DNA of 44,346 nucleotides from a virus, in the UHGV virus genome UHGV-0027446; one strand, 5' to 3'. Below the pieces are notes generated by a model. That model did not search any database, was not told where the DNA came from, and worked only from the letters and a program-made list of their open reading frames with translations. The position numbers and the translations under genes are program-made. Shown piece by piece: positions 4,888-40,123 of this stretch; the stretch's first letter is position 1, and each line of letters opens with the position of its first letter.

Positions 4888-4907
4888 AAGGCCCCAAACG
4901 GGGCCTT
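4888..4907. terminator. bidirectional rho-independent terminator (AAGGCCCC-AAAC-GGGGCCTT)
   Basis: Perfect 8-bp GC-rich stem; T-run on plus side and long A-run (U-run for minus transcripts) on the other; between convergent gene blocks. Confidence 0.6.
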
Positions 4908-5561: not shown

Positions 5562-6982
5562 TTCTTACCTCGTCTCTTCATGTAATTAAGCAACTCTTCC
5601 TGTACCGATTTCTTCTCGTCTGTGCGCGCGGCAACAACCTCATCCAGCGTGTCTTTAGCAACGATGTGGTACAGGAACACAGGGCGCTCGTGGCCTGCCT
5701 GTTTCTGGCGAACTGGGCCTATGCGCTCGACAACCTGCAAATAGTGCTCAAGGTTCCAGCCTTGCGAAATAAACGCCAGATGATGCCCGCCGTCCTGTAA
5801 ATTCAAACCATGACCGGCTGACGCAGGGTGCACGCATAAGATTTCGATTTCGCCACGGTTCCACGCTTCCATCTGTTTATTACCCTTCGCGCCTTTGGCA
5901 AACGCCTGTGCCTGCGGGAACCGCTTAAGGATGCGCTCCAGTTCGTGCTTGAACTGATAGGCCACCAGTAACGGCGCGCCCTGTAACTCCTCAACAATCG
6001 ACTCGAGCGCATCCAGTTTCGTGTCATGCACTTTCTCCCAGTCTTTGGTTGCTTCTCCGTCTGGCCCTGACACGTATACAGCGCCGGATGCAATCTGTAA
6101 ACACTTAGACGTTTTCGCTGCGGCGTTAGCCGCTTCGACTTCTCCGCTTTCAAGTTCCGCAAATAGCTTCTCCTCCATATCGATGTACGCCTGTCGCGCT
6201 TTCTTCGGCAGGTTGATTTCAACCGGTACAATAATCGGCGCTTCACAACCAAACCACTCGGCAGCGTCAATCGTGAGACTGATGTCCTTCATCTTCTGGT
6301 GAATTTCATTATCCGCACCAGGGCGGGCGTGGTATTCGCGCGCCATAGCCGACTTACCTTTCTGCACCGAGTTAAACCAGCGGTCGGTGAATGCCGTGTA
6401 TGAAGACCCGAGGCGCTCGCCGGCGTCGATAAACCAGTTCTGCCCCCACAAGTCCTTGAGGCCGTTCGGTGACGGTGTCCCTGTAAGGTTTATCAGCCGC
6501 TTAACATTTCTAAATGCTACTTTACTAAGCGCCTTTGCCCTCTTGCTCCCGCCAGAACGGCTACGGAATGATTTCAACTTCGTGCTTTCATCATTAACTA
6601 TCACGGTAAAAGGCCAGTCGTCTACGCCGTAATAGTCGATAAGCCACTCTATAACCTCATAGTTAATACAAATTACATTAGCGTCAGACTCCAGCGCCGC
6701 GATGCGGCGCTTCTCTGAACCGGTTGCATCGACGACACGCAGACACGGGAAACCCCACTTAGTTTGTTCTGCTGGCCATGTACCAGACGCAACGCGCAAC
6801 GGGGCGAGAATTAACACGCGGTCGTCGTCCGTAAGCTGCCCGTTGCGGAACAGGCGGTTTAAAGCCCACAGTACGCTGCCAGTCTTCCCGGCGCCCATGC
6901 TCGCCCAAATATTACAGCGATTGTGCCGCAACATGAACGAGGTCATGAGCTTCTGGTACTCGCGCCTTTGAAACTTACTCAT
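5558..6982 (-). CDS. SF2 (SNF2/DEAD-like) DNA helicase
   Basis: Walker A GAGKTG, DExx-like IVNDEST, C-terminal helicase domain motifs; in replication operon. Confidence 0.75.
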   Translation of the reverse strand: MSKFQRREYQKLMTSFMLRHNRCNIWASMGAGKTGSVLWALNRLFRNGQLTDDDRVLILAPLRVASGTWPAEQTKWGFPCLRVVDATGSEKRRIAALESDANVICINYEVIEWLIDYYGVDDWPFTVIVNDESTKLKSFRSRSGGSKRAKALSKVAFRNVKRLINLTGTPSPNGLKDLWGQNWFIDAGERLGSSYTAFTDRWFNSVQKGKSAMAREYHARPGADNEIHQKMKDISLTIDAAEWFGCEAPIIVPVEINLPKKARQAYIDMEEKLFAELESGEVEAANAAAKTSKCLQIASGAVYVSGPDGEATKDWEKVHDTKLDALESIVEELQGAPLLVAYQFKHELERILKRFPQAQAFAKGAKGNKQMEAWNRGEIEILCVHPASAGHGLNLQDGGHHLAFISQGWNLEHYLQVVERIGPVRQKQAGHERPVFLYHIVAKDTLDEVVAARTDEKKSVQEELLNYMKRRGKK

Positions 6983-7170
6983 TTCGCCACCAGAACTAAC
7001 TCTTTACGCCCGAACGCCGTAACGTTACCAGTTACATCTTCGATAACCAGTTTACCGTTCGACTCGACGTACACTGTATCAACGGCAACAGGGCGACGGG
7101 TCTTAACGTTGAAAATCATGTCGCCAGGTACGATGTCGCGGGCTGGTTTGCGGTCATATTCGTGTTTCAT
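6979..7170 (-). CDS. hypothetical protein
   Basis: 63-codon ORF translationally coupled (ATGA) to helicase; preceded by promoter 7204..7232. Confidence 0.4.
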   Translation of the reverse strand: MKHEYDRKPARDIVPGDMIFNVKTRRPVAVDTVYVESNGKLVIEDVTGNVTAFGRKELVLVAK

Positions 7171-7200: not shown

Positions 7201-7485
7201 TTAACTATAATAGTTCGCTATTAGGTCGTCAACCTGTTTAAACGAACCAACGACAAAAACATTTGCACCACGTTTACGCATACGCTCGTGCTCTCGTAGC
7301 TGGTGCGGGTCAGGCTTCGTGTTTTCGTCTTTCTTAACCTCGACGAACCAGATGATGCCGCCGGGGAGGATTACCAACAGGTCGGGGGCGCCTCCTCTAT
7401 TTTCGTACGACAATTTGCGTACGAGGCCCCCCAGGGCCTCAAATCGGTCTTTTGCGTATTTCTGAACACGGCCCTCTTTAGTCAT
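7201..7485 (-). CDS. VRR-NUC domain nuclease
   Basis: PDLLVILPGGIIWFVEVKK PD-(D/E)XK-type core; probable start at internal ATG (MTKEGRV), track ORF starts at TTG 7500. Confidence 0.6.
   Translation of the reverse strand: MTKEGRVQKYAKDRFEALGGLVRKLSYENRGGAPDLLVILPGGIIWFVEVKKDENTKPDPHQLREHERMRKRGANVFVVGSFKQVDDLIANYYS
7204..7232 (-). promoter_or_regulatory. sigma70-type promoter, family A (TTGACG-N17-TATAGT)
   Basis: Minus-strand reading TTGACG acctaatagcgaactat TATAGT; shares spacer motif with promoters at 11734 and 14400. Confidence 0.45.
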
Positions 7486-7720: not shown

Positions 7721-7848
7721 TCCAGTACCCACAAATAAATTGCTACTAGCATACCCAATACGGCGACCATCATGCCGTATTGACCCTCGTGACAGTAGAC
7801 ACCGGCGGCGAAGCCCGCCAGTACCGCGATAATCAGTTTACTTAGCAT
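7717..7848 (-). CDS. small hydrophobic membrane peptide (43 aa)
   Basis: Hand-translated MLSKLIIAVLAGFAAGVYCHEGQYGMMVAVLGMLVAIYLWVLE; start overlaps last codons of polymerase gene. Confidence 0.25.
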   Translation of the reverse strand: MLSKLIIAVLAGFAAGVYCHEGQYGMMVAVLGMLVAIYLWVLE

Positions 7849-10800
7849 AACGCTTCATCTCCGCGCCTTCCGCTACAAGAGGGAAGCCCTCTGCCCATTC
7901 CGGCAATTCGCACATCAACCGCCCAAGCTCTGCGACATTGTATTCTGGTAAATCTGGCGTCTCGCAGATAATCTCATCGTGAACATGAAGCACAATAGGA
8001 TAGCCGTTTGCCTCTACGTTCAGCAGTGCATTAGCCAGCAAATCACGGCACAGCGCCTGAGTGCAGTTTTCCACCAGTTTACCAGAGTAGGTGTACTGGA
8101 AACCCCACTGCCGTGTTAACTGGTTTTCACCCTGGTACTTGATGCGGACGTTAGTAGACACCTTCCCGTCTTCGTCTGTCTCTTTAGACACGCTTAACCC
8201 GACTCCGGGGTAAGACATAACGCGGCCCGACGGCAGCGTCATGCGCAACCACCAACCAGCGACTTTGTTGCCGTTGCTATCTGTCTCTACGTTGCGCGAA
8301 AATTTAACGCCGCGTGGCCCTGCAGTGAACTCTTTGCCAGGATTACGGATAGCCGCCATAGCCGCATCTTCAATATCCCGCCAGAACGCTACTGTTTCCG
8401 GGTGTGACTCACGCCACATGCGCTTGATAGCGTCGCAGGTACGCCACACTTTCTTATCAAGAATATACGATGGTCGGTCATCCTTTTCACCGGGCCGCGG
8501 AGGTCGCTTGGCTTCCTGAATACGCGCCCATTCATATCCGCGTGCAGTAGCGGCCCATATATGGTCGGGGAAAGTACCGTCCATTGTTTTAGCCATATCA
8601 ACAAGATTTAAGCCGAGGTTTTTAGCAAACTGAACGAAAGCGCCGACGCCGCCTGCGTAGCCGAGGCCCAATTCACAGTTATGCGCCACAAGAAAGCCAG
8701 AGTCTGACGCTATAAGAAAACGGTTACCGTCTTCCACATCAATCAGGTCGTAAACCGGCTCGCAGTAGGTTAATTTCCCGTTCAAGCTCAGCAATGCGGG
8801 CAACGGCTGCATCATATTTTCGTTGAAGCTCGGGTATTTGCCGCCTGTTACGGCAGTTTTCAGAACGGCTGACAAACCGAATGTTTCCAGGTTCGTAGTT
8901 ACCGTCTGTGTCGATTCTGTCCATTTCGAGGTTTGGGTCGTCCCAGCCTTCCAGAGTTTGAACATATCTAAGAAACGACCTTTTATCAGTCCTCCACTGG
9001 TTAAATACCGTGATGCCCCTGGCGCCATAGTTTTTATAGCCTTTGTCATTAGGTTTTGTTGTTCGCGATATCGCCGCGGACAGCCGGTTGAGCAATCGCG
9101 CTCTGTGACTGTCATCTGGCATCGCATCCTCGTAACAGAAATACTGTTTACGATATTTTTTTGTTGCTTCAAGTGCGCAGCGGTTACATTGAGTGGTTTT
9201 ACCTCTTCTAACATTGTCGTACCCGACGCGCCCCGGAATCTCTCCGCAATCACATTGAGCAAGTAGTTGTCTATGACCTTGTCGTTTTGGTAACTCGCGC
9301 AGGATAACCAGGCGTCCATACCTCTCTCCAGGGCGAGGCCCATCATATATTTGTTTGAAACGAGTTGCTTTGCCGCCTTCCAGGAATGCGTCAATATTTT
9401 GTGGTCTTCGGTCATTAGAACCCCGTCCACATTTATCACTGGTTTCCACCCCATAAGGTGCGCGCCTTTTGTATTCACCCATTTTTCACCGTTCCATACT
9501 TTATCTGTTGATGTAACCGCCATAATATCCTTAAATCCACCATCGGTCAAAACTTGGGTATGGCGGTGAAGACAGGCCTTGCCAATCTGGCGCAGGTCAC
9601 TACGGCTTTCGAGAATGTAATCGGGGTCCATTCCGAACATCTTACCCGCAGTTACACAGTAAATATCCAGTCCCGCACGGAAAGTATCGAGAGCGGTTTC
9701 TTCTCCCGCCAGCCATGCCAACCCGCGTCCTTCAACGTTAGAGTAATCGGCGACTACAAACTTATGTCCGGCTTCCGGTATGATGCAGCTACGCACCGTC
9801 GATGCCGTTAGTTTGGCCACATCAAAACGGCGATGCGCACGGCCTTTAAACAACAGGTCGATTCCGTAGGACAATGGGTGTGTTACTCGCCACCAGTCCT
9901 TCTCTGACATCCAGTCATAGCGTACTTTCTTCTTTTTATTCTTCGGGTCGTCGTGATAGTACCCGCGCGCCAGGTTCTGCGGCTGAAAGCCTTTGCCCGC
10001 AAATCGTAATGTACGCTTCGCTCCGCCATACTGGATGCAACCACGACGGCGGTCGTCCGACGAGCGGCCCAACAGCAGCGGGTTATATTTCGTTGACGCG
10101 GTAGACGCGGCTCCGAGGCGCATTTCGATAATCATGCGGGCGTCGTCCGGTAAATCATCATCCGCCAACAAGTCATTCAGCGTTGACTTCTGCGCGTTGT
10201 GGATGCGGTGCGCGGGTGCGAGTTCACGCAGAATCGGCAGAAAGTCTTTACCAGTAAGCGAGCCGCCGTATTTTCGTTGGGCTTCTTCCTGTAACTGCGC
10301 TTTGTGTTTCTCCACGGCTTCAATCGCGGCTTCTGCCAGCGCGACGTCTACCTTAAACCCTCGGTCATTGATTAACTGGTCCAGCTCAAGTACACGGTCC
10401 TCGAACTCTGAGTTACCCCACCGCGGCAGCTTATGGAAGACTTCACGCATCGCAGTGATGTCGCTCACGGCGTACTTGATGAACAGCGCCCACTCGTCCG
10501 GGTGTGTTTCGGCGGTGTAGCGGCGGATTTTGTAGTTCTTCGGCGTAGGTTTAGAAAAACGCTGAATCAGCGCCTTGCCGCGTTTGTCTTTTGCGTTGTC
10601 TGCGGACACGCCCAACACTTCGCACAAAGCATCAAGTGAACCCGGCAGCGCGTGACGAAACGCCCAAATCATCGTATCAATGGTGTTGTTTACCGGAATA
10701 TCAAAACCCCAGCAGTGTTTCATGATGAGCCTGTCGAACATTGAACCGTTGTGCCACACCATCTTGATACGGCTGTTCGGTTTAACCAGACGGCGTAGCG

Positions 10801-10987
10801 CGCGGTGCAAATCGCCAGGCATGTCGCTGCCGTCTGTGCAGTCCCATACCTGTACGGGCTCGTCGTCAAAAGCATAAGTACAGATGAGCACTTCGGTTGA
10901 CGGGTGTTCGGCGTAAGCGTAGGAACCGACTTTCTTTAAATCGACTCCGGAGAATGTTTCAAAGTCTAAGTAGAGTAATTCTGGCAT
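7838..10987 (-). CDS. family-A DNA polymerase with 3'-5' exonuclease domain, interrupted by an intein
   Basis: Exo I motif YLDFETFS; motif A VVADYSNVEGR; motif B split by a 299-codon insertion; likely start at ATG (MPELLYLDFE), track ORF extends to TTG at 11017. Confidence 0.85.
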   Translation of the reverse strand: MPELLYLDFETFSGVDLKKVGSYAYAEHPSTEVLICTYAFDDEPVQVWDCTDGSDMPGDLHRALRRLVKPNSRIKMVWHNGSMFDRLIMKHCWGFDIPVNNTIDTMIWAFRHALPGSLDALCEVLGVSADNAKDKRGKALIQRFSKPTPKNYKIRRYTAETHPDEWALFIKYAVSDITAMREVFHKLPRWGNSEFEDRVLELDQLINDRGFKVDVALAEAAIEAVEKHKAQLQEEAQRKYGGSLTGKDFLPILRELAPAHRIHNAQKSTLNDLLADDDLPDDARMIIEMRLGAASTASTKYNPLLLGRSSDDRRRGCIQYGGAKRTLRFAGKGFQPQNLARGYYHDDPKNKKKKVRYDWMSEKDWWRVTHPLSYGIDLLFKGRAHRRFDVAKLTASTVRSCIIPEAGHKFVVADYSNVEGRGLAWLAGEETALDTFRAGLDIYCVTAGKMFGMDPDYILESRSDLRQIGKACLHRHTQVLTDGGFKDIMAVTSTDKVWNGEKWVNTKGAHLMGWKPVINVDGVLMTEDHKILTHSWKAAKQLVSNKYMMGLALERGMDAWLSCASYQNDKVIDNYLLNVIAERFRGASGTTMLEEVKPLNVTAAHLKQQKNIVNSISVTRMRCQMTVTERDCSTGCPRRYREQQNLMTKAIKTMAPGASRYLTSGGLIKGRFLDMFKLWKAGTTQTSKWTESTQTVTTNLETFGLSAVLKTAVTGGKYPSFNENMMQPLPALLSLNGKLTYCEPVYDLIDVEDGNRFLIASDSGFLVAHNCELGLGYAGGVGAFVQFAKNLGLNLVDMAKTMDGTFPDHIWAATARGYEWARIQEAKRPPRPGEKDDRPSYILDKKVWRTCDAIKRMWRESHPETVAFWRDIEDAAMAAIRNPGKEFTAGPRGVKFSRNVETDSNGNKVAGWWLRMTLPSGRVMSYPGVGLSVSKETDEDGKVSTNVRIKYQGENQLTRQWGFQYTYSGKLVENCTQALCRDLLANALLNVEANGYPIVLHVHDEIICETPDLPEYNVAELGRLMCELPEWAEGFPLVAEGAEMKRYAK
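8678..9574 (-). mobile_element. intein inserted in polymerase motif B
   Basis: Starts CLHRHTQVLTDGG (block A), has LMTEDHKILT (block B), ends YDLIDVEDGNRFLIASDSGFLVAHN with Cys at +1; excision restores RQIGKA-CELGLGYAGG. Confidence 0.7.
8739..9482 (-). CDS. HNH homing endonuclease, encoded in an alternative frame within the intein
   Basis: 247-codon ORF, same strand as polymerase but a different frame; YGRLVIL, QCDCGEIPGRVGYDNVRRGKTTQCNRC, KGYKNYGARGITVFNQW, LEMDRIDTDGNYEPGNIRFVSRSENCRNRR. Confidence 0.55.
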   Translation of the reverse strand: MGEYKRRAPYGVETSDKCGRGSNDRRPQNIDAFLEGGKATRFKQIYDGPRPGERYGRLVILRELPKRQGHRQLLAQCDCGEIPGRVGYDNVRRGKTTQCNRCALEATKKYRKQYFCYEDAMPDDSHRARLLNRLSAAISRTTKPNDKGYKNYGARGITVFNQWRTDKRSFLRYVQTLEGWDDPNLEMDRIDTDGNYEPGNIRFVSRSENCRNRRQIPELQRKYDAAVARIAELEREINLLRAGLRPD

Positions 10988-11007
10988 GGTATTTCGACCC
11001 TTAGTAA

Positions 11008-11027
11008 AAAGGCCCAATGAAGGGCCT
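11008..11027 (-). terminator. intercistronic hairpin / attenuator between SSB-like gene and polymerase gene
   Basis: AAGGCCC-loop-GGGCCTT followed on the minus-strand transcript by UUUUUACU; lies in the 30-nt gap just upstream of the polymerase RBS. Confidence 0.45.
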
Positions 11028-11047
11028 TAGTTAAATTGATTCAGATA

Positions 11048-11733: not shown

Positions 11734-11762
11734 ACTATAATAGCTAACTATTCAGGTGTCAA
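11734..11762 (-). promoter_or_regulatory. sigma70-type promoter, family A (TTGACA-N17-TATAGT)
   Basis: Minus-strand TTGACA cctgaatagttagctat TATAGT; spacer nearly identical to promoter at 14400. Confidence 0.5.
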
Positions 11763-13864: not shown

Positions 13865-14368
13865 TTATTCTTCTTCGAAATACTTGTTCTTGATTGCCGT
13901 CAGGCGTTCCAGGTATTCGGCCAAGTTTTCGTCTTTAATCGCGGCAATCTTCATCTTTTTACCAGTGAACTCTTCCAGCAGTTCATCAGAATCATCGCAC
14001 GCGGCATCGCTAGGACCTTCGTTAATCGCATCGTCGATAGCCTGAATCTGGTCACGCAGAGACTTATAATCGACCCCTTCTTCCGTTTCCGGCGTCGGTT
14101 CCTCTACTTTAGCTTTACGCGGCTTGCGTTTCGGCTTCTCTTCTTCTTCTGCCGGTTTAGTGTCAACGATGTCTTCACCTTCGATAGGGATTTCTTTCCC
14201 GACGCCAGTACCAGGGTCGACTTCAAGTACCTCTCCCGTAACCGATACGTCCACAAGCATTTCACCTACATGCTCAGTTTGGTGCACGGGGCGTTTTGCG
14301 ATATTCGCGGCAATCAGTTCATGTGCAACTACGAAACGTTCCAGTAATTTTAAGAATTGGTCTAACAT
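13865..14368 (-). CDS. acidic hypothetical protein, first gene of leftward early operon
   Basis: GAGGAGAG SD; highly acidic (E/D-rich) product; directly downstream of promoter 14400..14429. Confidence 0.45.
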   Translation of the reverse strand: MLDQFLKLLERFVVAHELIAANIAKRPVHQTEHVGEMLVDVSVTGEVLEVDPGTGVGKEIPIEGEDIVDTKPAEEEEKPKRKPRKAKVEEPTPETEEGVDYKSLRDQIQAIDDAINEGPSDAACDDSDELLEEFTGKKMKIAAIKDENLAEYLERLTAIKNKYFEEE

Positions 14369-14399: not shown

Positions 14400-14429
14400 A
14401 CTATAATAGCTAACTATTCATTATGTCAA
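14400..14429 (-). promoter_or_regulatory. sigma70-type promoter, family A (TTGACA-N18-TATAGT), leftward
   Basis: Minus-strand TTGACA taatgaatagttagctat TATAGT; divergent from Cro-like gene promoter. Confidence 0.5.
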
Positions 14430-14433
14430 TGGG

Positions 14434-14462
14434 CTTTTCTAAAATAATTAATATGGTACTAT
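14434..14462 (+). promoter_or_regulatory. extended -10 promoter (TGgTACTAT) for Cro-like gene
   Basis: TG at -15/-14 plus TACTAT; weak -35; 30 nt upstream of AGGAG SD. Confidence 0.45.
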
Positions 14463-14493
14463 TCACATATCAACTGACTAAGGAGTAATTGAC

Positions 14494-14709
14494 ATGCAAC
14501 CATCTGAACTAGGTATCCGTGTAGAACAACGCCGTAAAGAACTCGGCATCTCCCAGCGCCGTCTGGCTGTCCTGACCGGGGTTTCCCAGGGCGCAATTAA
14601 CCAGCTGGCTCTCGGTGTAACTCAGGACGTCCGTCCGGCGACGCTGTTTAAACTGGCGGAAGTGCTGCAAGTAGACGCCAAGTGGTTGGTGTTAGGTGAA
14701 GGGGCTTAA
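14494..14709 (+). CDS. HTH XRE-family (Cro-like) transcriptional regulator
   Basis: ELGISQRRLAVLTGVSQGAINQL helix-turn-helix; AAGGAG SD; lone plus-strand gene in divergent promoter region. Confidence 0.7.
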   Translation: MQPSELGIRVEQRRKELGISQRRLAVLTGVSQGAINQLALGVTQDVRPATLFKLAEVLQVDAKWLVLGEGA

Positions 14710-17474: not shown

Positions 17475-17687
17475 TTACTTAACGCCCGCGATCCACGCAC
17501 GCTCAGAAGTGTAGAAACGACACTTACTTAACGACTCGATTGGCATCTTAATAATTCGTGTTGTTCCTGAAAAATAATCAGGTTTGCATATTTCTGCATA
17601 GAAACCGCTGTCCGTAATTTCTGACGCAAACTTAAACCGGTATTTAACTTTACCGTTCTCAAAGTAACAACCCATACGTCCAATCAT
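17475..17687 (-). CDS. hypothetical protein
   Basis: 70-codon ORF, ATGA coupled to AlpA-like gene. Confidence 0.4.
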   Translation of the reverse strand: MIGRMGCYFENGKVKYRFKFASEITDSGFYAEICKPDYFSGTTRIIKMPIESLSKCRFYTSERAWIAGVK

Positions 17688-17866
17688 TTAACGTTCTCCT
17701 TAATCCACGCTTCAACTTTATTACGGTCAAATGTTCCCGGTAAACGGCGGCCCATAACCTTAATACAGCAATCCGGGAATTTACCACTGCGCAACCAGTT
17801 ATTAATTGTCTGACGTGTCACCCCGATACGTTCAGCTACTTCATTCTGTGTCATGTAATTCGGCAT
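17684..17866 (-). CDS. AlpA/excisionase-like HTH DNA-binding protein
   Basis: MPNYMTQNEVAERIGVTRQTINNWLRSGKFP; AGGAGAT SD before internal ATG (track ORF extends to 17938). Confidence 0.55.
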   Translation of the reverse strand: MPNYMTQNEVAERIGVTRQTINNWLRSGKFPDCCIKVMGRRLPGTFDRNKVEAWIKENVK

Positions 17867-17973: not shown

Positions 17974-18002
17974 TTGACTTTTACTAAGAAATATGGTAAG
18001 CT
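17974..18002 (+). promoter_or_regulatory. extended -10 promoter of conserved element copy R1 (TTGACT-N14-TGgTAAGCT)
   Basis: Near-identical promoter at 31328..31356. Confidence 0.45.
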
Positions 18003-18005
18003 CAG

Positions 18006-18215
18006 CCTGAGCTTGTGAAGTATGAACAAGCGACCGCGGCGCGCGGCAGGCGAAACGAGCACGTGTAGCGTGTGGAGTGAGGCTCGCTAGCGCGTTTGGG
18101 AGGCCCAAAGTCTATTGTAATTCCAGCCTAAATATCTAAGTTACTGATTTGCCGTAGGTTTTATCCGCAAGCTCACTCACTCACTCTTGGTGCCTTCGGC
18201 ACCACGTTCGTTTCG
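18006..18215 (+). ncRNA. candidate conserved leader / small RNA, copy R1
   Basis: Begins at predicted TSS with 38 nt identical to 31360..31397, including hairpin GCTTGT-gaagtatga-ACAAGC; ends near GGTGCC-TTCG-GGCACC hairpin. Confidence 0.3.
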
Positions 18216-18280: not shown

Positions 18281-18309
18281 TTGCACACCCCAACATAATA
18301 GGCTACTAT
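18281..18309 (+). promoter_or_regulatory. sigma70-type promoter, family B (TTGCAC-N17-TACTAT)
   Basis: TTGCAC accccaacataataggc TACTAT; near-identical copies at 31233 and 40095 (minus) and 19646 (plus). Confidence 0.5.
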
Positions 18310-18343
18310 TCACTTATCGAAACGAGACAGAGGAGTGAGGGCT

Positions 18344-18523
18344 ATGTTTAAACGTGGTCAAATCGCACGAGACAACAACGGTTCTATTTATTCTATCCGC
18401 AGCATGGAGATTTTTAATGGGTTCTACCGTGTGCAGGATGTTGTTTCGGGAAAGGTGCTTGTGCGCCATGCTTCAAATTTAAAACTCATCGGCAACAATT
18501 TTAAATTCAAAGGGGCGAAGTGA
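18344..18523 (+). CDS. hypothetical protein
   Basis: ATG after GAGGAG; first gene after promoter. Confidence 0.4.
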   Translation: MFKRGQIARDNNGSIYSIRSMEIFNGFYRVQDVVSGKVLVRHASNLKLIGNNFKFKGAK

Positions 18524-19645: not shown

Positions 19646-19674
19646 TTGCACGCTGAGCTAGAATAGGCTACTAT
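19646..19674 (+). promoter_or_regulatory. sigma70-type promoter, family B (TTGCAC-N17-TACTAT)
   Basis: TTGCAC gctgagctagaataggc TACTAT, then conserved leader with GAGAGGAGAG SD. Confidence 0.5.
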
Positions 19675-19705
19675 TCATTTACACAAACGAGAGGAGAGAC
19701 AGAAG

Positions 19706-19843
19706 ATGAAATACGAAAGATACATAATTATGGACGGGGTTAAAAAATTGAGCGGATGGTGCCGGCTAGATTGGGCTCGTGATGCACTCGATTTTTATAT
19801 TTCAAACGGGCTAACAACAGCACGTATCGTACCCATTCATTAG
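19706..19843 (+). CDS. small hypothetical protein (45 aa)
   Basis: Hand-translated MKYERYIIMDGVKKLSGWCRLDWARDALDFYISNGL...; strong SD. Confidence 0.3.
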   Translation: MKYERYIIMDGVKKLSGWCRLDWARDALDFYISNGLTTARIVPIH

Positions 19844-19867
19844 TTCTAGTGGGAGGAGAGACCGAAG

Positions 19868-20287
19868 ATGGGTAACAAAAACGAAGTATTCGAGTACCTG
19901 ATTGACAAACTACGGCAGCAGGTAACTAACAACCAGTGCGAAGACCTGGCGCATGAGGTGCAGTCACTTAAGAACCAGTTACGTGACGCGTCGGCGCAGA
20001 TTAAGGAGTTGCATCTGGCATTGGCCAAGGCTACATGCGATGTAGAGGCTTATAAACTTATCCGCGAATGTGGGTCTATCGATGGCGGTCGGCGATATGT
20101 AGTGGGTGAACATGTGCCCGGGGCAACGGTAAATTGTCGGTGTACCCCGACGCCTGTACCGCCAGAACAATCCGGTTGCCGTAAAGAGGATACCCAGGAA
20201 TGGCCCTACCGTTTCTATTATGTAGTGACAGATGGCTCCGCGCCGTTCGGTACGAAAGTATGTAAAACGTGCGGGGGATACTTCTGA
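19868..20287 (+). CDS. Cys-rich hypothetical protein
   Basis: ATG after GGGAGGAGAG; multiple CxxC pairs in C-terminal half. Confidence 0.45.
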   Translation: MGNKNEVFEYLIDKLRQQVTNNQCEDLAHEVQSLKNQLRDASAQIKELHLALAKATCDVEAYKLIRECGSIDGGRRYVVGEHVPGATVNCRCTPTPVPPEQSGCRKEDTQEWPYRFYYVVTDGSAPFGTKVCKTCGGYF

Positions 20288-22483: not shown

Positions 22484-22505
22484 ATCTGTTTTCTGCAATG
22501 ACTAG

Positions 22506-22534
22506 TTGACTATTACCTGTGACCCTATTATATT
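22506..22534 (+). promoter_or_regulatory. sigma70-type promoter (TTGACT-N17-TATATT)
   Basis: Near-consensus -35, 17-nt spacer containing ccctattat as in family B. Confidence 0.55.
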
Positions 22535-24175: not shown

Positions 24176-24247
24176 TTGACGTCTGAATAGCCCGCTAGTA
24201 TAGTTAAAACGCTTCATACACTAATTTAACGAACAGAGAGAGCAAAC

Positions 24248-24478
24248 ATGGGTACTAAATTTGAAGTAATCGACGAAAACACAGTTACGGTAACGGAAGA
24301 AGGTAGCCACTACATCCTTATTGATAAGGTAAACGGTAGCTGGAGAGCAAAAGCGTACTTTAACGGCGGCGCTACAGTCGTATCAAAAGGAGCGCATGCG
24401 TCTTTTACTTCCGCGTACGACAACCTTAAAGATGCGGTTAAAGCCGCAGCCAGTCATCTGGCATCCGTAGAGCTGTAA
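24248..24478 (+). CDS. hypothetical protein
   Basis: ATG after AGAGAGAG; followed by terminator. Confidence 0.45.
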   Translation: MGTKFEVIDENTVTVTEEGSHYILIDKVNGSWRAKAYFNGGATVVSKGAHASFTSAYDNLKDAVKAAASHLASVEL

Positions 24479-25123: not shown

Positions 25124-26358
25124 TGGATATTCCATTAACAGAACCCCAACAGGACTTTGTATTCAGTACAAAGACACATCCAGCTATTGTCGCTGGACTG
25201 GGGGCAGGTAAGTCCCGCGCGGCAACGATGCGCCTTTTGTATCTTATGTTGCGCGAGCGCGGGATAAACACCCTGTACACCATGCCTACGTATGACCTGT
25301 TGAAGCTGCGCGCCATCCCTGGGGTGGTTGATGACCTGAATATGATGGGGCTTAAGTATGACCTCAACAAATCGGAATACAGTATCCACGTTAAGGGGTA
25401 CGGCACTATGTTTTTCCGGTCATACGACAACCCGAACCGTCTAATCGCTTTTGAAGTGGCGCATTCTGTCGCAGACGAACTTGACGTGCTTACTAAAGAA
25501 CAGGCATCTCTGGTGTGGCGTAAGATTTCAGAGCGTACCCGACAACCATGTAGGGGTGGGAACAGTATTGCCGCCGTGACTACACCTGACCAGGGATTCT
25601 CTGGATTTGTGTACGACTATTGGGTTACTAACGCCGACAGTTCTACGGAACTGATTAAGGCATCTACATTGTCGAACCCATATTTACCTGAAGGCTACGT
25701 CGAGCAGATACGAAGGAACTACGACGCGGCTTTGGCCGATATGTATATCCACGGTGAATTTGTCAGTTTGACGGCCAATAAGGTGTATCACTATTTCAAG
25801 CGAAGCACACATGACTCCGCCCGCACCTTGCAGAACGGAGACGCTCTGCATATAGGGCTGGACTTTAACATCGGCGGCTGTTGCGCCACCGTGAGCGTTA
25901 TCGAAGACGGCAACCCGACGGTTGTTGATGAGTTTGTCAGTCATAATACCGACGATTTCGTCAATAACGTCAGGATACGGTACCCGGGCCATACGGTTAC
26001 GGTTTACCCCGACGCCTCAGGCCGCTCAGGCCACACTAACGCATCATTATCCGACATAGGTATCATCGAAAAGGCCGGCTTACGTGTTAACGCTCCAAGT
26101 AAGAACCCATTCGTTAAAGACAGAATAAACGCGGTTAACGCGCTTTTGTCACATAGCCGTTTGAGGGTTAACACTTCAAAATGCCCTAAATTAACGCAGT
26201 CACTGGAAACGCAGGGGTATAACGATAATGGCGAACCGGAGAAGTTTAAAACTCACCCGGCTATTGACGACTGGAACGACAGTTTAGGTTATTGTATGCA
26301 CAGGTTGTTCCCTGTTGTCCGCCCTGTTATCAACACTCCTGTCAGATTCGCACTTTAA
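25123..26358 (+). CDS. terminase large subunit
   Basis: Walker A GLGAGKS, Walker B VADELD, C-terminal nuclease-type acidic motifs (GLDFN...). Confidence 0.8.
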   Translation: MDIPLTEPQQDFVFSTKTHPAIVAGLGAGKSRAATMRLLYLMLRERGINTLYTMPTYDLLKLRAIPGVVDDLNMMGLKYDLNKSEYSIHVKGYGTMFFRSYDNPNRLIAFEVAHSVADELDVLTKEQASLVWRKISERTRQPCRGGNSIAAVTTPDQGFSGFVYDYWVTNADSSTELIKASTLSNPYLPEGYVEQIRRNYDAALADMYIHGEFVSLTANKVYHYFKRSTHDSARTLQNGDALHIGLDFNIGGCCATVSVIEDGNPTVVDEFVSHNTDDFVNNVRIRYPGHTVTVYPDASGRSGHTNASLSDIGIIEKAGLRVNAPSKNPFVKDRINAVNALLSHSRLRVNTSKCPKLTQSLETQGYNDNGEPEKFKTHPAIDDWNDSLGYCMHRLFPVVRPVINTPVRFAL

Positions 26359-27843: not shown

Positions 27844-27867
27844 TTAAGGCCCCGATAGGGGCCTTAA
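27844..27867. terminator. bidirectional terminator (TTAAGGCCCC-GATA-GGGGCCTTAA)
   Basis: Perfect 10-bp stem between convergent portal and nuclease genes. Confidence 0.6.
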
Positions 27868-27869
27868 TC

Positions 27870-29285
27870 TCACTTATTCCACACCAATTTCTCTTGTCCG
27901 CTATCCCATATGCGGGATACACCTTCCTCGGCGTACCATTCCGACTGAGTGAGACCCTCTGGCGCTTTGTTCCATTTTTGCCGTGATTCTGTTTTAGTCG
28001 CATTGTTTACGACGATACGGAAGCCGCATCTCACAGAAGCCTTTTTAAACCCCGCTGATAAGTATGCTTCTCCGGTAAATAAATCCCGGTCAGTGTAGGT
28101 AAAACCGTCGGTGATGCTATAACGGCGTACTGCGTAAGTCCATAGCTTTGACAGCCCTCCGACCACCGAACATGACGTAGCGTACCGCACAAGTTCCCAT
28201 TCGCCTTTTCTACACGTCAGCGTCATTACCGCGACAATCTTCTCTTCATACACAAGGCTGATATACTTCGTCGAGTTACGGAATCCTTGTATGTGGTTCT
28301 CCTCCAGAAAATATTCTGCGCGCAGTTTGTTAATCTCTTTTACATGGCATTTGCGGGCGAAAACGCGCAAAGAAGAGACGCCAACGGAATGGCTGATTAT
28401 TTTCTTTATTATTTCTTTTTTATGCAGCCATAGCTCGTCCCTTATTGACAGGAGTCGGAACCCTCTTGCCTCAACGGCAACTCTTTTCTCCATGTGATAC
28501 TTTCTCCCCTTCCCGGCAGCTTCGCTGTGCCAGTACAGGCCGTTTATTTCTATAGCCAGATTATGTTGTGGTATTAAAATATCTATCTCTCTTGGGTGGA
28601 TAAGACTTCTATCATTCCGACGATATTCCACCCCCATGCTGTCGAGAAATTCACAGACTTCATCCTCCACTTTACTACGCCCAAACGACGCACACCGCGG
28701 GCACCCTCTACCCTGAAAGATGTTACCAAGCGTAGCGGCCCATTCATGGCCTTTTTGACACCTCAGTGCCGACGGCATACGGCAGATATCCCCTGAATAA
28801 GACACCAGTTCAAAACCAGTGCCGCGTAACCTTTCCTCTATTTCGCCGATCTCAAGCCTTTTTCTGTTAGTGCTGCAATTCGGGCAATGACTTTTACCCC
28901 TTAAAACGTCGCTGCCGGTAGCGGACCAGACGAACCCGCATTTACATCTGAACGTTGATTTCCCACTGACAGCACCCGCGTAGCGAACACATTCAACCCC
29001 ATTAGGCCACTCTGCTACTTTCGCCCGTTTTTCCTCCGCATAGCATTGCGGGCAACCATGACCGTTCAGGACGGTATTAGCCTTTGTATCCCACACATGC
29101 CCCCTACGGCAGCGGAATTTAGACTTAAGTTTAGAGTGACCCGCATACTCAATTACGACTATCCCCCGTGATTCTAGTCTCAGGTTTATATCTTCTTCGG
29201 TTAAACGTCTGGACCCCATTAAAATATCCTCCACTTCTTCTTCTAGTATAAAGATTGCGCATATACATGTATCACAGCAAGACAT
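27870..29285 (-). CDS. multi-domain nuclease-like protein: three zinc-ribbon repeats + Vsr/PD-(D/E)XK-like core + C-terminal domain (homing-endonuclease-like)
   Basis: Three repeats of F(R/K)C..GH.W......(L/F).G.GCP.C; REIDILIPQHNLAIEINGLYWHS...ARGFRLLSIRD; alternative start at internal ATG 29219 after GGAGGA. Confidence 0.55.
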   Translation of the reverse strand: MSCCDTCICAIFILEEEVEDILMGSRRLTEEDINLRLESRGIVVIEYAGHSKLKSKFRCRRGHVWDTKANTVLNGHGCPQCYAEEKRAKVAEWPNGVECVRYAGAVSGKSTFRCKCGFVWSATGSDVLRGKSHCPNCSTNRKRLEIGEIEERLRGTGFELVSYSGDICRMPSALRCQKGHEWAATLGNIFQGRGCPRCASFGRSKVEDEVCEFLDSMGVEYRRNDRSLIHPREIDILIPQHNLAIEINGLYWHSEAAGKGRKYHMEKRVAVEARGFRLLSIRDELWLHKKEIIKKIISHSVGVSSLRVFARKCHVKEINKLRAEYFLEENHIQGFRNSTKYISLVYEEKIVAVMTLTCRKGEWELVRYATSCSVVGGLSKLWTYAVRRYSITDGFTYTDRDLFTGEAYLSAGFKKASVRCGFRIVVNNATKTESRQKWNKAPEGLTQSEWYAEEGVSRIWDSGQEKLVWNK

Positions 29286-30861: not shown

Positions 30862-30865
30862 TAAA

Positions 30866-30892
30866 AGGCCCCTTACGGGGCCTTAGTTTTAT
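30866..30892. terminator. bidirectional terminator (AAGGCCCC-TTAC-GGGGCCTT + T-run)
   Basis: Between convergent genes 30400..30861 and 30889..31203. Confidence 0.55.
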
Positions 30893-31203
30893 TTCTTTCC
30901 TAATGCTTTCTTGATTGCTCTGTCGGCCAGACTTAACGGATGGTCTTTATGGCAATTGTCAGAAGATACTACACAAACATCCTCAACGTAATCGCGAAGC
31001 TGGCGAAGAGCTTCAAGTAACTCTGGTGCCGAGGCGATAAGTTCGGCGTCGTGTTTATCATTAATTTCTTCTGCAACTGGAGTTCGGATAGTACAGCCGT
31101 ACATTTTCTTTAATGAGCCTTTCTGAAACACAAACCACTCCTGCTCGCCTTTTTCTTTCTTGAACTCCCACGGACCTTTCGTGCCTTTAAATTCATCTTT
31201 CAC
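30889..31203 (-). CDS. hypothetical protein (opposite-strand insertion)
   Basis: GTG start after GAGGAGGG SD, driven by family-B promoter; GPWEF...LIASAPELLEAL motif. Confidence 0.45.
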   Translation of the reverse strand: MKDEFKGTKGPWEFKKEKGEQEWFVFQKGSLKKMYGCTIRTPVAEEINDKHDAELIASAPELLEALRQLRDYVEDVCVVSSDNCHKDHPLSLADRAIKKALGKK

Positions 31204-31232
31204 TTTATACCCTCCTCGTTTCGATGTAATGA

Positions 31233-31261
31233 ATAGTACCCTATTATGCTGGGGTGTGCAA
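31233..31261 (-). promoter_or_regulatory. sigma70-type promoter, family B (TTGCAC-N17-TACTAT)
   Basis: Minus-strand TTGCAC accccagcataataggg TACTAT. Confidence 0.5.
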
Positions 31262-31327
31262 ACTATTTATTAGCCTATTCCAGTTATTCCGCTCAATTGT
31301 AAATGTTGGAATAAACTATTCGAATAG

Positions 31328-31356
31328 TTGACTTTTCACTGAAAATATGCTAAGCT
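31328..31356 (+). promoter_or_regulatory. extended -10 promoter of conserved element copy R2 (TTGACT-N14-TGcTAAGCT)
   Basis: Same architecture as 17974..18002; -35 overlaps 16-bp palindrome AACTATTCGAATAGTT. Confidence 0.45.
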
Positions 31357-31359
31357 CCA

Positions 31360-31563
31360 CCTGAGCTTGTGAAGTATGAACAAGCGACCGCGGCGCGGGC
31401 AGGTAACGGAGCGGGACGTAAGTCCTGAGTGTAGTTACGCTGACGCGTTCGGAAGGGCCATACTCTATTGCTTGTGTAAAAAGTAACTGGTTTACTGAAA
31501 TTGCGCCGTTTCTATGTTTAAATGATAAGTACTAGCGCCCCGCTTTAAGGCGGGGCTTTACTT
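31360..31563 (+). ncRNA. candidate conserved leader / small RNA, copy R2 (upstream of spanin genes)
   Basis: 38 nt identical to R1 at predicted TSS, ~70% identity beyond; ends in GCCCCGC-TTTAAG-GCGGGGC hairpin + TTTACTT. Confidence 0.3.
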
Positions 31564-32076: not shown

Positions 32077-32158
32077 TTGCCTTGCATGTTGGAATAATTT
32101 ATTCTTGACATGTAAATCCGGGTGGCCCGGATTCCAACGTCCAGGGGACATACTGACT

Positions 32159-38450: not shown

Positions 38451-38476
38451 TAAGGCCCCGACAGGGGCCTTTTTCT
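38451..38476. terminator. bidirectional terminator (TAAGGCCCC-GACA-GGGGCCTT + T-run)
   Basis: Between major tail gene and convergent minus-strand cassette. Confidence 0.6.
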
Positions 38477-39872: not shown

Positions 39873-40064
39873 CTACTTCTCTTTCACGTTCGAGTTGCAA
39901 GCCCATATTAAAATAAATAACCACGGCAGCAGAACCCAACCAAGAAACAGGTTAGCCATGAATATAGCTAACTTCGCTTTATGGTTACGGAAGTACGCAA
40001 CCAGGAAAGGCGCGAAATAAGCGAGCAGTGCAAACAGAATTAAGGAAACTGGTAAACTGGACAT
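39873..40064 (-). CDS. superinfection-immunity (Imm)-like small membrane protein
   Basis: Two TM segments, LLAYFAPFLVAYFRNHKAKLAIFMANLFLGWVLLPWLFILIWA; internal ATG after AAGGGG. Confidence 0.5.
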   Translation of the reverse strand: MSSLPVSLILFALLAYFAPFLVAYFRNHKAKLAIFMANLFLGWVLLPWLFILIWACNSNVKEK

Positions 40065-40094
40065 TTTAAACCCCTTCATTGTTGGTGTAAGTGA

Positions 40095-40123
40095 ATAGTA
40101 CCCTATTATATTGGGGTACGCAA
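40095..40123 (-). promoter_or_regulatory. sigma70-type promoter, family B (TTGCGT-N17-TACTAT)
   Basis: Minus-strand TTGCGT accccaatataataggg TACTAT driving the cassette. Confidence 0.5.

Follow-up and report, generated by a model that had tools for sequence, protein, structure and literature searches.

The window, the whole 44,346-nucleotide (nt) stretch of DNA that was analyzed, is virus genome UHGV-0027446, and this work concerns four near-identical promoter-like units in it (family B, units B1 to B4) and the 14-base-pair (bp) inverted repeat that they carry. Megablast against phage records placed the window in Kagunavirus (Guernseyvirinae), with Raoultella phage RP180, Escherichia phage 26 and K1ind3 as the top matches at about 87-91% identity. 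Members of Kagunavirus are virulent siphophages that infect E. coli and related bacteria. The annotations of the complete relatives RP180, K1ind3 and Salmonella phage Jersey contain no RNA polymerase gene, and every open reading frame (ORF) of the window longer than 300 amino acids (aa) was matched to other orthologues or domains, none of them an RNA polymerase; transcription must therefore use the host enzyme.

An initial annotation had listed the family B units at 18281 and 19646 on the plus strand and at 31233 and 40095 on the minus strand, and all four were found there. B1 (18281..18343, plus strand) has a -35 hexamer TTGCAC at 18281-18286, a -10 hexamer TACTAT at 18304-18309 and the palindrome AATAGGCTACTATT at 18297-18310; its leader and ribosome-binding site (RBS) run to the ATG at 18344 of a gene encoding a 59-aa protein (phrog_12538). 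B2 (19646..19705, plus strand) has its -35 hexamer TTGCAC at 19646-19651, palindrome at 19662-19675 and -10 hexamer at 19669-19674, and its leader ends at the ATG at 19706, the first gene of an operon reaching through the holin and endolysin genes. On the minus strand, B3 (31204..31261) consists of a -35 hexamer at 31261-31256, a palindrome at 31245-31232 and a -10 hexamer at 31238-31233, followed by a leader to the GTG at 31203 of a 104-aa cargo gene (30889..31203, minus strand; phrog_1273). B4 (40065..40123, minus strand) has the -35 hexamer TTGCGT at 40123-40118, the palindrome at 40107-40094 and the -10 hexamer at 40100-40095, and its leader leads to the ATG at 40064 of a gene for a superinfection-immunity protein (PF14373, 1e-12). 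As the initial annotation had said, two opposite-strand insertions within the structural block (31261-30865 and 40123-38452) are driven by units of this family, and both terminate at a copy of one terminator family.

The pattern TTGCRY-N17-TACTAT occurs exactly four times in the window, where dinucleotide shuffles give an expectation of 0.02, and the core ATAGGSTACTATTCA has four exact matches in the same four units plus a fifth copy with one mismatch at 14451(+), 5' of an XRE gene. The shorter TACTATTCA occurs five times against 0.21 expected. Three units have nearly the same spacer (accccaacataatagg(c), accccagcataatagg(g) and accccaatataatagg(g)), as originally described, and B2 has only the 3' half, agaataggc, in common with the others. 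The leader consensus held in part: tca(c/t)tta is present in B1, B2 and B4 and is tcattaca in B3, and aaacgag(a/g)gag is present in B2 and B3 and is replaced by aaacgagacagaggag in B1 and caccaacaatgaagggg in B4. Each unit has the features expected of a sigma70 promoter: TTG begins the -35 hexamer, 17 bp follow that hexamer, and the second and sixth positions of the -10 hexamer are A and T. Each is intergenic, and a short leader without structure connects it to the Shine-Dalgarno sequence and start codon of a gene in the same orientation. Judged by sequence, B1 to B4 are plausible sigma70-type promoters. Their -35 hexamers agree with TTGACA at just 3 of 6 positions, which is why a generic promoter scanner skipped the family. 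The choice of hexamers is not unique by match count: YAKAAT lies 10 bp 5' of TACTAT, and at B4 the alternative pair ATCACA-17-TATAAT matches at 10 of 12 positions. Only the TTGCAC/TACTAT pair is kept in all paralogues and orthologues. The upstream YAKAAT, considered as the real -10 hexamer, was set aside as not conserved in either, and remains a caveat.

The conserved "spacer" of family B is part of a 14-bp inverted repeat, AATAG-N4-CTATT (the dyad), which the initial annotation had missed. Seven exact copies and five copies with one mismatch are present in the window, compared with 1.0 expected at one mismatch or fewer, and no other 5-N4-5 palindrome of the window, the terminator stems included, is as frequent as AATAG. 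The half-site centres are 9 bp apart, about one helical turn, the spacing expected of an operator for a dimer. Eleven of the 12 copies (seven exact and four with one mismatch) cover a promoter-like site 5' of a gene, the exception being a one-mismatch match at 1930. The four units are real and form a subset of a larger palindrome-bearing set of about 11 promoters, among them TTGACA-type promoters whose dyads had likewise gone unnoticed. Exact dyads outside family B (7209, 11739 and 14405) lie in the spacers of minus-strand promoters of a second family, family A, with the form TTGACR-N4/5-AATAGnnnnCTATT-ATAGT, that is, of the TTGACA-17/18-TATAGT type. Family A promoters fit the sigma70 consensus closely (10-11 of 12 positions, spacers of 17-18 bp), and the three best sigma70 matches in the whole window, together with two of the 10/12 matches, carry the dyad. 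The dyad occurs in three registers in the window, with its centre at about -33.5 (over the -35 hexamer), -18.5 (in the spacer) or -12.5 (over the -10 hexamer), and in all of them it overlaps core promoter elements, as an operator would. Because the dyad lies 5' of the predicted transcription start, it would not be transcribed, and a role in RNA is excluded. A structured RNA or attenuator in the leader was rejected on this ground and because Rfam covariance models gave no match at gathering thresholds anywhere in the window and the four leaders folded no better than shuffled sequences (z-scores -0.9 to +2.2).

Promoter A1 (TTGACG-17-TATAGT, 7204..7232, minus strand; palindrome 7209-7222) lies 5' of a 63-aa gene and the helicase operon, and A2 (TTGACA-17-TATAGT, 11734..11762, minus strand; palindrome 11739-11752) lies 5' of the genes for a single-stranded DNA-binding protein and DNA polymerase. 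A3 (TTGACA-18-TATAGT, 14400..14429, minus strand), with the palindrome AATAGTTAGCTATT at 14405-14418 in its spacer, is divergent from the XRE gene. On the XRE side, 5' of that gene, is the fifth B-type site (14450..14463, plus strand), with an imperfect palindrome, AATATGGTACTATT, the -10 hexamer TACTAT at 14457-14462 and a poor -35; it is nearly invariant in relatives in the alignment made for A3. The other promoter-associated one-mismatch dyads are at 24186, 22501 and 31323. The first, AATAGCCCGCTAGT at 24186-24199, belongs to a family A-type promoter (TTGACG-17-TATAGT, 24176..24204, plus strand) located 5' of a 76-aa ORF (24248-24478) and the terminase genes. The other two cover a TTGACT -35 hexamer: ACTAGTTGACTATT at 22501-22514 in TTGACT-17-TATATT (22501..22534, plus strand), whose Jersey orthologue is AATAGTTGACTAGT, and AATAGTTGACTTTT in the site at 31323..31356 (plus strand), the weakest member, with a possible -10 hexamer TAAGCT after 17 bp.

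Related genomes were searched for the same unit, and the dyad was present at orthologous positions in the Kagunavirus genomes examined (eight exact copies in RP180, six in K1ind3, and copies in 37 IMG/VR Kagunavirus contigs) and at some positions in Jerseyvirus (four exact and three one-mismatch copies in Jersey). Jerseyvirus keeps the arms with different centres, and one Jersey orthologue is in a fourth register, centred at -15.5. An IMG/VR scan with AATAGNNNNCTATTATAGT gave multi-copy matches solely on Kagunavirus-like contigs of 40-45 kb; the scattered single matches on other contigs were chance-like for 15 specified bases. Column variability was compared at B1, B2, A1, A2 and A3, which were located through homology of their flanks and not through the dyad, in 31-41 related phages (28-36 unique sequences aligned per site). 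On average, 0.0-0.4 sequences deviated per column in the arms, 2.0-5.5 in the 4-bp centre and 1.2-3.5 in the 20 flanking columns, and the arms were less variable than both centre and flanks at all five sites, the pattern expected of an operator. Both arms of a family A dyad fall between -25 and -12, within the spacer, a stretch whose bases sigma70 does not read specifically. Arms that stay invariant around a free centre, across two genera and several registers, are what would be expected of a site for a dimeric sequence-specific DNA-binding protein. The footprint is, by the evidence of these alignments, that of such a protein and not of sigma70 contacts or of recent neutral duplication. Of the two explanations offered in the initial annotation for the conserved spacer, recognition by a phage regulator is the one that gained support, the arms being the most constrained columns and the centre free.

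We regard it as probable that B1 to B4 are host sigma70-type promoters with a 14-bp operator built into the core and that a small phage protein binds the dyad. At least seven further promoter-like sites would carry the same operator, in three registers. Two subunits of a small phage-encoded DNA-binding protein would bind the two arms, and binding would block RNA polymerase in any register, since every dyad overlaps the polymerase footprint. Accumulation of the regulator would then repress or throttle early and middle transcription, a form of negative feedback. Occlusion is the simplest mechanism for a dyad in variable register on promoters that, in family A, are near consensus with optimal spacers. 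We infer promoter activity, protein binding and the sign of the regulation from the sequence.

Two small proteins of the window are candidates for the binder. One is a 60-aa protein with a MerR-like winged-helix domain, HTH_17 (17684..17866, minus strand; PF12728, 1.7e-8; phrog_66), a type commonly annotated as 'excisionase'. Kagunavirus and Jerseyvirus versions of this protein are 80-98% identical and differ little in the recognition helix (VTRQTINNWLR vs. VTRRTLNNWLR). The gene is absent from three Cornellvirus-type genomes, which also have no copy of the dyad, and its own upstream region in the window contains no palindrome. The best structural matches of the AlphaFold model (pLDDT 79.5), all of them weak (E about 7e-3, TM about 0.6, 20-27% identity), are to the DNA-bound RacA domain, BldC, a mycobacteriophage Xis and MerR-type domains. 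The site of the RacA DNA-binding domain is a 14-bp inverted repeat with one subunit per half-site. The other candidate is a 71-aa XRE/HTH_3 protein (14494..14709, plus strand; PF01381, 1e-12), which among solved structures is nearest to the N-terminal domain of the 434 repressor and to 434 Cro (E 3e-6 to 9e-6). Operators of 434 repressor and Cro are likewise 14 bp long, and the XRE gene is beside a divergent promoter region with one exact and one imperfect dyad, 45 bp apart. The XRE protein is present in all three genera, with 48% identity in Jersey and 38-40% in the three Cornellvirus-type genomes. The phyletic pattern favors the HTH_17 protein as the putative binder, and operator geometry and the divergent-promoter layout favor, by analogy, the XRE protein. 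Roughly weighed, the HTH_17 protein is the foremost candidate at somewhat less than an even chance, with the XRE protein and some other binder each less probable than that, and about equally so. Co-variation of operator and regulator offers one informative split, Kagunavirus and Jerseyvirus vs. Cornellvirus, which favors the HTH_17 protein and has the weight of a single event.

Two further observations concern the same phyletic split. A 63-aa protein (phrog_4879; 6979-7170, minus strand), encoded directly behind promoter A1, is 95-97% identical between Kagunavirus and Jerseyvirus, far above its neighbors, and is absent from Cornellvirus, the same phyletic pattern as that of the dyad and the HTH_17 gene. 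The three Cornellvirus-type genomes contain TATTA-N6-TAATA three times each (in Cornellvirus SP-031 at 14066, 26544 and 33280), and two of the three SP-031 copies are at promoter positions of accessory genes. This sequence may be a diverged operator, which would favor the XRE protein, or simply a symmetric -10-like sequence; it is rich in A+T and too rare for a call.

Several points weigh against an operator bound by one small phage repressor. The two candidate regulators give conflicting signals: the recognition helix of the XRE protein differs between Kagunavirus and Jerseyvirus although the arms of the dyad are identical, and the co-occurrence of the HTH_17 gene and the dyad amounts to one clade split and one evolutionary event. 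Rich in A+T, the arms look like -10 hexamers (TATAAT-AG, CTAT-TAT), so part of the arm conservation in family B could stem from the -10 hexamer. If nearly all promoters carry the dyad, including that of the terminase genes, simple repression alone gives no temporal program. In the one RNA-seq study of a Kagunavirus, genes behind different palindromic promoters fall into different temporal classes (PMC12645636); those data are of low resolution, were mapped to gene numbers by gene order only, and served as weak support.

The dyad might instead be a loading or activation site, at which the small phage protein activates transcription or rides polymerase as an antiterminator in the manner of AlpA or Q, a reading that we consider unlikely. 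AlpA and Q proteins load at a DNA element within the promoter, and a candidate for this role is the early-expressed HTH_17 protein, whose MerR/excisionase-like fold is in the same broad helix-turn-helix (HTH) group as AlpA. A 'helix-turn-helix domain' gene, probably the HTH_17 homologue by gene order, is among just four early genes in the Kagunavirus RNA-seq, genes behind palindromic promoters peak later (PMC12645636), and the HTH_17 gene itself has no palindrome 5' of it, all of which speaks for this reading. Three or four registers relative to the -35 and -10 hexamers are hard to square with the fixed geometry of polymerase, however, and family A promoters, so close to consensus and so well spaced, should need no activator. 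MerR-type activation needs a 19-20-bp spacer and the spacers here are of 17-18 bp, and the HTH is C-terminal in AlpA and N-terminal in the window's protein. Another reading dispenses with a dedicated protein and ascribes the conserved sequence to intrinsic promoter needs, such as a pair of -10-like hexamers (YAKAAT and TACTAT) at a distance of 10 bp, symmetric -10 sequences that allow initiation in both directions, or an influence of spacer and discriminator on polymerase. A TATAAT-like hexamer does flank every copy (cATAATAG, tATAATAG, or, on the reverse strand of family A, cTATAATAG), the right arm overlaps the -10 hexamer in family B, and the alternative hexamer pair at B4 scores as noted above. 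Such needs are unlikely to account for the pattern: the arms in family A are as invariant as the hexamers though sigma70 does not read their bases specifically, the 4-bp centre and the 3-5 bp beside the -35 hexamer are free to vary, and polymerase is not known to require a 5-4-5 dyad with an unconstrained centre. The alternative -35 hexamers are not conserved among paralogues, and that of B1 is lost in most orthologues by an indel.

Binding of the dyad by a host protein has a lead in the E. coli Trp repressor, whose operator ACTAG-TTAA-CTAGT has the same 5-4-5 geometry and one different base per arm. All four promoter-associated one-mismatch copies retain that geometry, one arm is ACTAG at 22501 and 24186 in the window and at 42338 in Jersey, and the related enterobacterial hosts of Kagunavirus and Jerseyvirus would also explain conservation of the arms. 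The seven exact copies are all AATAG, though, and none is ACTAG, and Cornellvirus-type phages infect Salmonella like Jerseyvirus yet have no dyads, which argues against a shared host factor; we hold this explanation to be decidedly improbable. The marbox and other host-factor motifs were compared by eye, and none fitted except the Trp operator in its geometry. Similarity left over neutrally from recent duplication of a promoter cassette, the other proposal of the initial annotation, finds some footing in this genome. B1 and B3 have 56 bp in common at 84% identity, a 145-bp segment beside each is also duplicated at 75% identity, and an RBS linker is duplicated around a 45-aa ORF, so cassettes do move within this genome. 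The duplications are old, however, because orthologues are present in all Kagunavirus genomes examined (RP180, K1ind3 and the 37 IMG/VR contigs) and at several sites in Jerseyvirus. The homology of the paralogues stops at functional boundaries, the edges of promoter and leader, and the arms stayed invariant while adjacent bases diverged; the contrast in substitutions between arms and centre already contradicts a neutral leftover, and we give it very little probability. Least credible of all are promoters for a phage-encoded RNA polymerase. Papers that used PHIRE on phages fBC-Eco01 and Golestan label seven repeats each as phage promoters, yet the three complete relatives have no annotated polymerase gene, the large ORFs of the window have other assignments, and the repeat points toward its downstream genes in some cases and away from them in others, always within sigma70-type hexamers. 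A T7/SP6-type promoter, suggested by a loose resemblance (...TAGG..ACTAT...), was rejected for want of a polymerase gene in relatives of the lineage.

The repeat itself is already on record for this lineage, of which the initial annotation was unaware. Seven 'phage promoters' with the consensus tgAATAGTa-ccTATTat-T were predicted by PHIRE in fBC-Eco01 and ascribed to a phage RNA polymerase (PMC9825357), seven PHIRE promoters were reported for Golestan (PMC7203180), and a 'conserved phage-specific regulatory element', TAATAGTACCCTATTATGTT, was reported for Salmonella phage SGP-C (PMC8790156). These are the same sequence, the fBC-Eco01 consensus and TAATAGTACCCTATTATGTT being the reverse complement of the family B core, at about seven copies per genome. 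The PHIRE papers give the repeat and the phage RNA polymerase label, without the dyad symmetry, the registers, the contrast between arms and centre, the candidate binders or the link to gene exchange. The attribution to a phage polymerase is almost certainly wrong. No analysis of dyad symmetry, registers, binder or cargo turnover was found in the papers that were searched.

The genes behind the family B promoters are exchanged among related phages, and this turnover of cargo was observed directly, as were the repeat, its statistics and positions, and its evolutionary footprint. At B2, promoter and leader are nearly invariant up to the ATG in 26 loci, and the first gene has 18 distinct N-terminal 12-mers in those loci, about 16 of them unrelated. 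B1 has two alternative first genes among relatives. At B3, among the matches listed, the promoter side is 93-97% identical in Kagunavirus records and the window's cargo gene was matched in about two records. Elsewhere the B3 slot holds other genes, for example one for a sliding clamp, with the break at the start codon or the RBS; in K1ind3 the palindrome is missing from the B3 position. B3 thus has the makeup of a moron, with a predicted promoter (31261-31233), a gene (31203-30889), a terminator (30884-30865) and variable content in relatives. B4 shows part of this pattern: its block is conserved in Kagunavirus and Jerseyvirus and the first gene differs between the genera, the superinfection-immunity gene being replaced in Jersey. 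The terminators belong to a bidirectional hairpin family, AAGGCCCC-N4-GGGGCCTT, with four exact copies in the window against 0.01 expected at two or fewer mismatches. Two of them close the B3 unit (30865..30884, bidirectional) and the B4 unit (38452..38471, minus strand), and the others are at 4888-4907 and 27846-27865, with a near copy at 11009-11028. The family sits where minus-strand gene blocks meet plus-strand structural genes.

The 45-aa ORF behind B2 (19706-19843) is flanked by a 16-nt direct repeat, GGAGAGAC(A/C)GAAGATG, an RBS linker with copies at 19693-19708 and 19855-19870. In two related loci the next gene follows the B2 leader directly, without this ORF, which with its flanking linkers resembles a gene inserted into the B2 slot with the scar still present. 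Unrelated genes have a second linker, ATAAGGAATTTAGAAATG, in common, at 7209(-) and in the B1 and B2 slots of other phages. The conserved leader is, as the comparison of loci indicates, a linker at which accessory genes are inserted and lost, much like morons and the boundary sequences kept in mosaic phages. The family B promoter, with its purine-rich unstructured leader and RBS, makes up the fixed 5' edge of accessory-gene slots, and the shared terminator family makes up the 3' edge of two of them (B3 and B4), the first gene being exchanged between phages.

Each of these arrangements resembles a known system in part, and no new principle is involved: operators within promoters, morons and conserved linkers are all established. 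Like the operators of 434 Cro and cI, the dyad is 14 bp long, has conserved outer bases and a variable centre, and overlaps the core promoter, and the window's 434-like 71-aa HTH_3 gene adjoins a divergent promoter pair with two dyads. In contrast to the 434 system, the window's dyads are scattered over about 11 promoters of a virulent phage instead of forming one switch region, there is no cI-type repressor or integrase in the window, the half-site sequence is different, and the recognition helix of the HTH_3 candidate is not kept between the two genera that share the dyad. Morons, reportedly described by Juhala and Hendrix, consist of a promoter, a gene and a terminator inserted between conserved genes of lambdoid and HK97-like phages. 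B3 is similar in having a predicted promoter, one gene and a hairpin terminator, antisense between head genes and with variable cargo; it differs in that promoter and terminator belong to genome-wide repeat families and that the socket remains in place when its gene is replaced. In T4-type phages, the PeSL cassettes, reportedly described by Arbiol et al. in 2010, combine an early promoter with a stem-loop and flank hyperplastic regions. Here too a repeated early-type promoter cassette borders regions of shuffled, unrelated small ORFs, and linkers flank an inserted ORF, whereas the family B leaders are unstructured and form no stem-loop, the cassette includes a dyad operator, and the phage lineage is another. 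As for RacA and BldC, the model of the 60-aa HTH_17 protein is closest to these small MerR-like winged-helix proteins, although BldC binds direct and not inverted repeats and the structural matches are weak.

Several other elements were noted in the window. The 145-bp segment mentioned above is a same-orientation duplication (17974-18117 and 31328-31470; 75% identity), with more than 90% identity in its core, CCTGCCGCGCGCCGCGGTCGCTTGTTCATACTTCACAAGCTCAGG..GAGCTTA.CATATTT. It carries a minus-strand promoter-like site, TTCACA-18-CATATT, and a hairpin, AAGCTCAG/CTGAGCTT; one copy is 5' of the HTH_17 gene in a 400-bp non-coding region and the other is just 5' of B3. The segment may act as an early promoter, encode a small RNA or be related to an origin. 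A second dyad, GAATAAnTTATTC, is present at 32092-32104 and 31309-31321 in the window, at 7256 and 8012 in Jersey and at 25438 and 26596 in SP-031. Preceded by GGAATA repeats, the copy at 32092 directly abuts a TTGACA -35 hexamer (TTGTTA at Jersey 8012) 5' of the scaffold and capsid genes. Unlike the AATAG dyad, GAATAAnTTATTC is conserved in all three genera, including Cornellvirus, and it may be the site of a late-promoter regulator. The DNA polymerase ORF (7838-11017, minus strand) encodes 1059 aa, compared with about 730 aa in RP180, K1ind3 and Jersey; its single best tblastn high-scoring segment pair to RP180 spans 468 aa and the Pfam DNA_pol_A match ends at residue 481, which suggests a large in-frame insertion, possibly an intein or endonuclease-like, or fusion with an upstream ORF. 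Between the genes for portal and head morphogenesis lies another minus-strand gene (27870-29285), the third opposite-strand insertion of the structural block; it encodes a 471-aa protein with treble-clef zinc-finger and Vsr/restriction-endonuclease-like domains. The protein is 42% identical to a Jersey 'homing endonuclease' and absent from RP180, and its promoter-like site is a different one, TCGACA-16-TAATAT at 29340-29313.

Guernseyvirinae of the genera Kagunavirus and Jerseyvirus are often isolated and have been put forward for therapy and food safety, and their transcriptional program has been essentially uncharacterized to date. A dyad operator in host-type promoters offers a testable regulon of about 11 sites with two candidate regulators, and Cornellvirus, which has neither the site nor the HTH_17 candidate, provides a clean negative-control lineage. 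It is possible, though doubtful, that one small phage protein, most likely the HTH_17 protein, governs nearly every promoter through one 14-bp operator in three registers, and that sockets made of promoter, leader and terminator take swapped genes. If so, accessory genes would enter the sockets by recombination at short conserved linkers, and a captured gene would fall under phage control at once on arrival. For phage engineering, such promoter, leader and terminator sockets would mark places where foreign genes are naturally tolerated and expressed.

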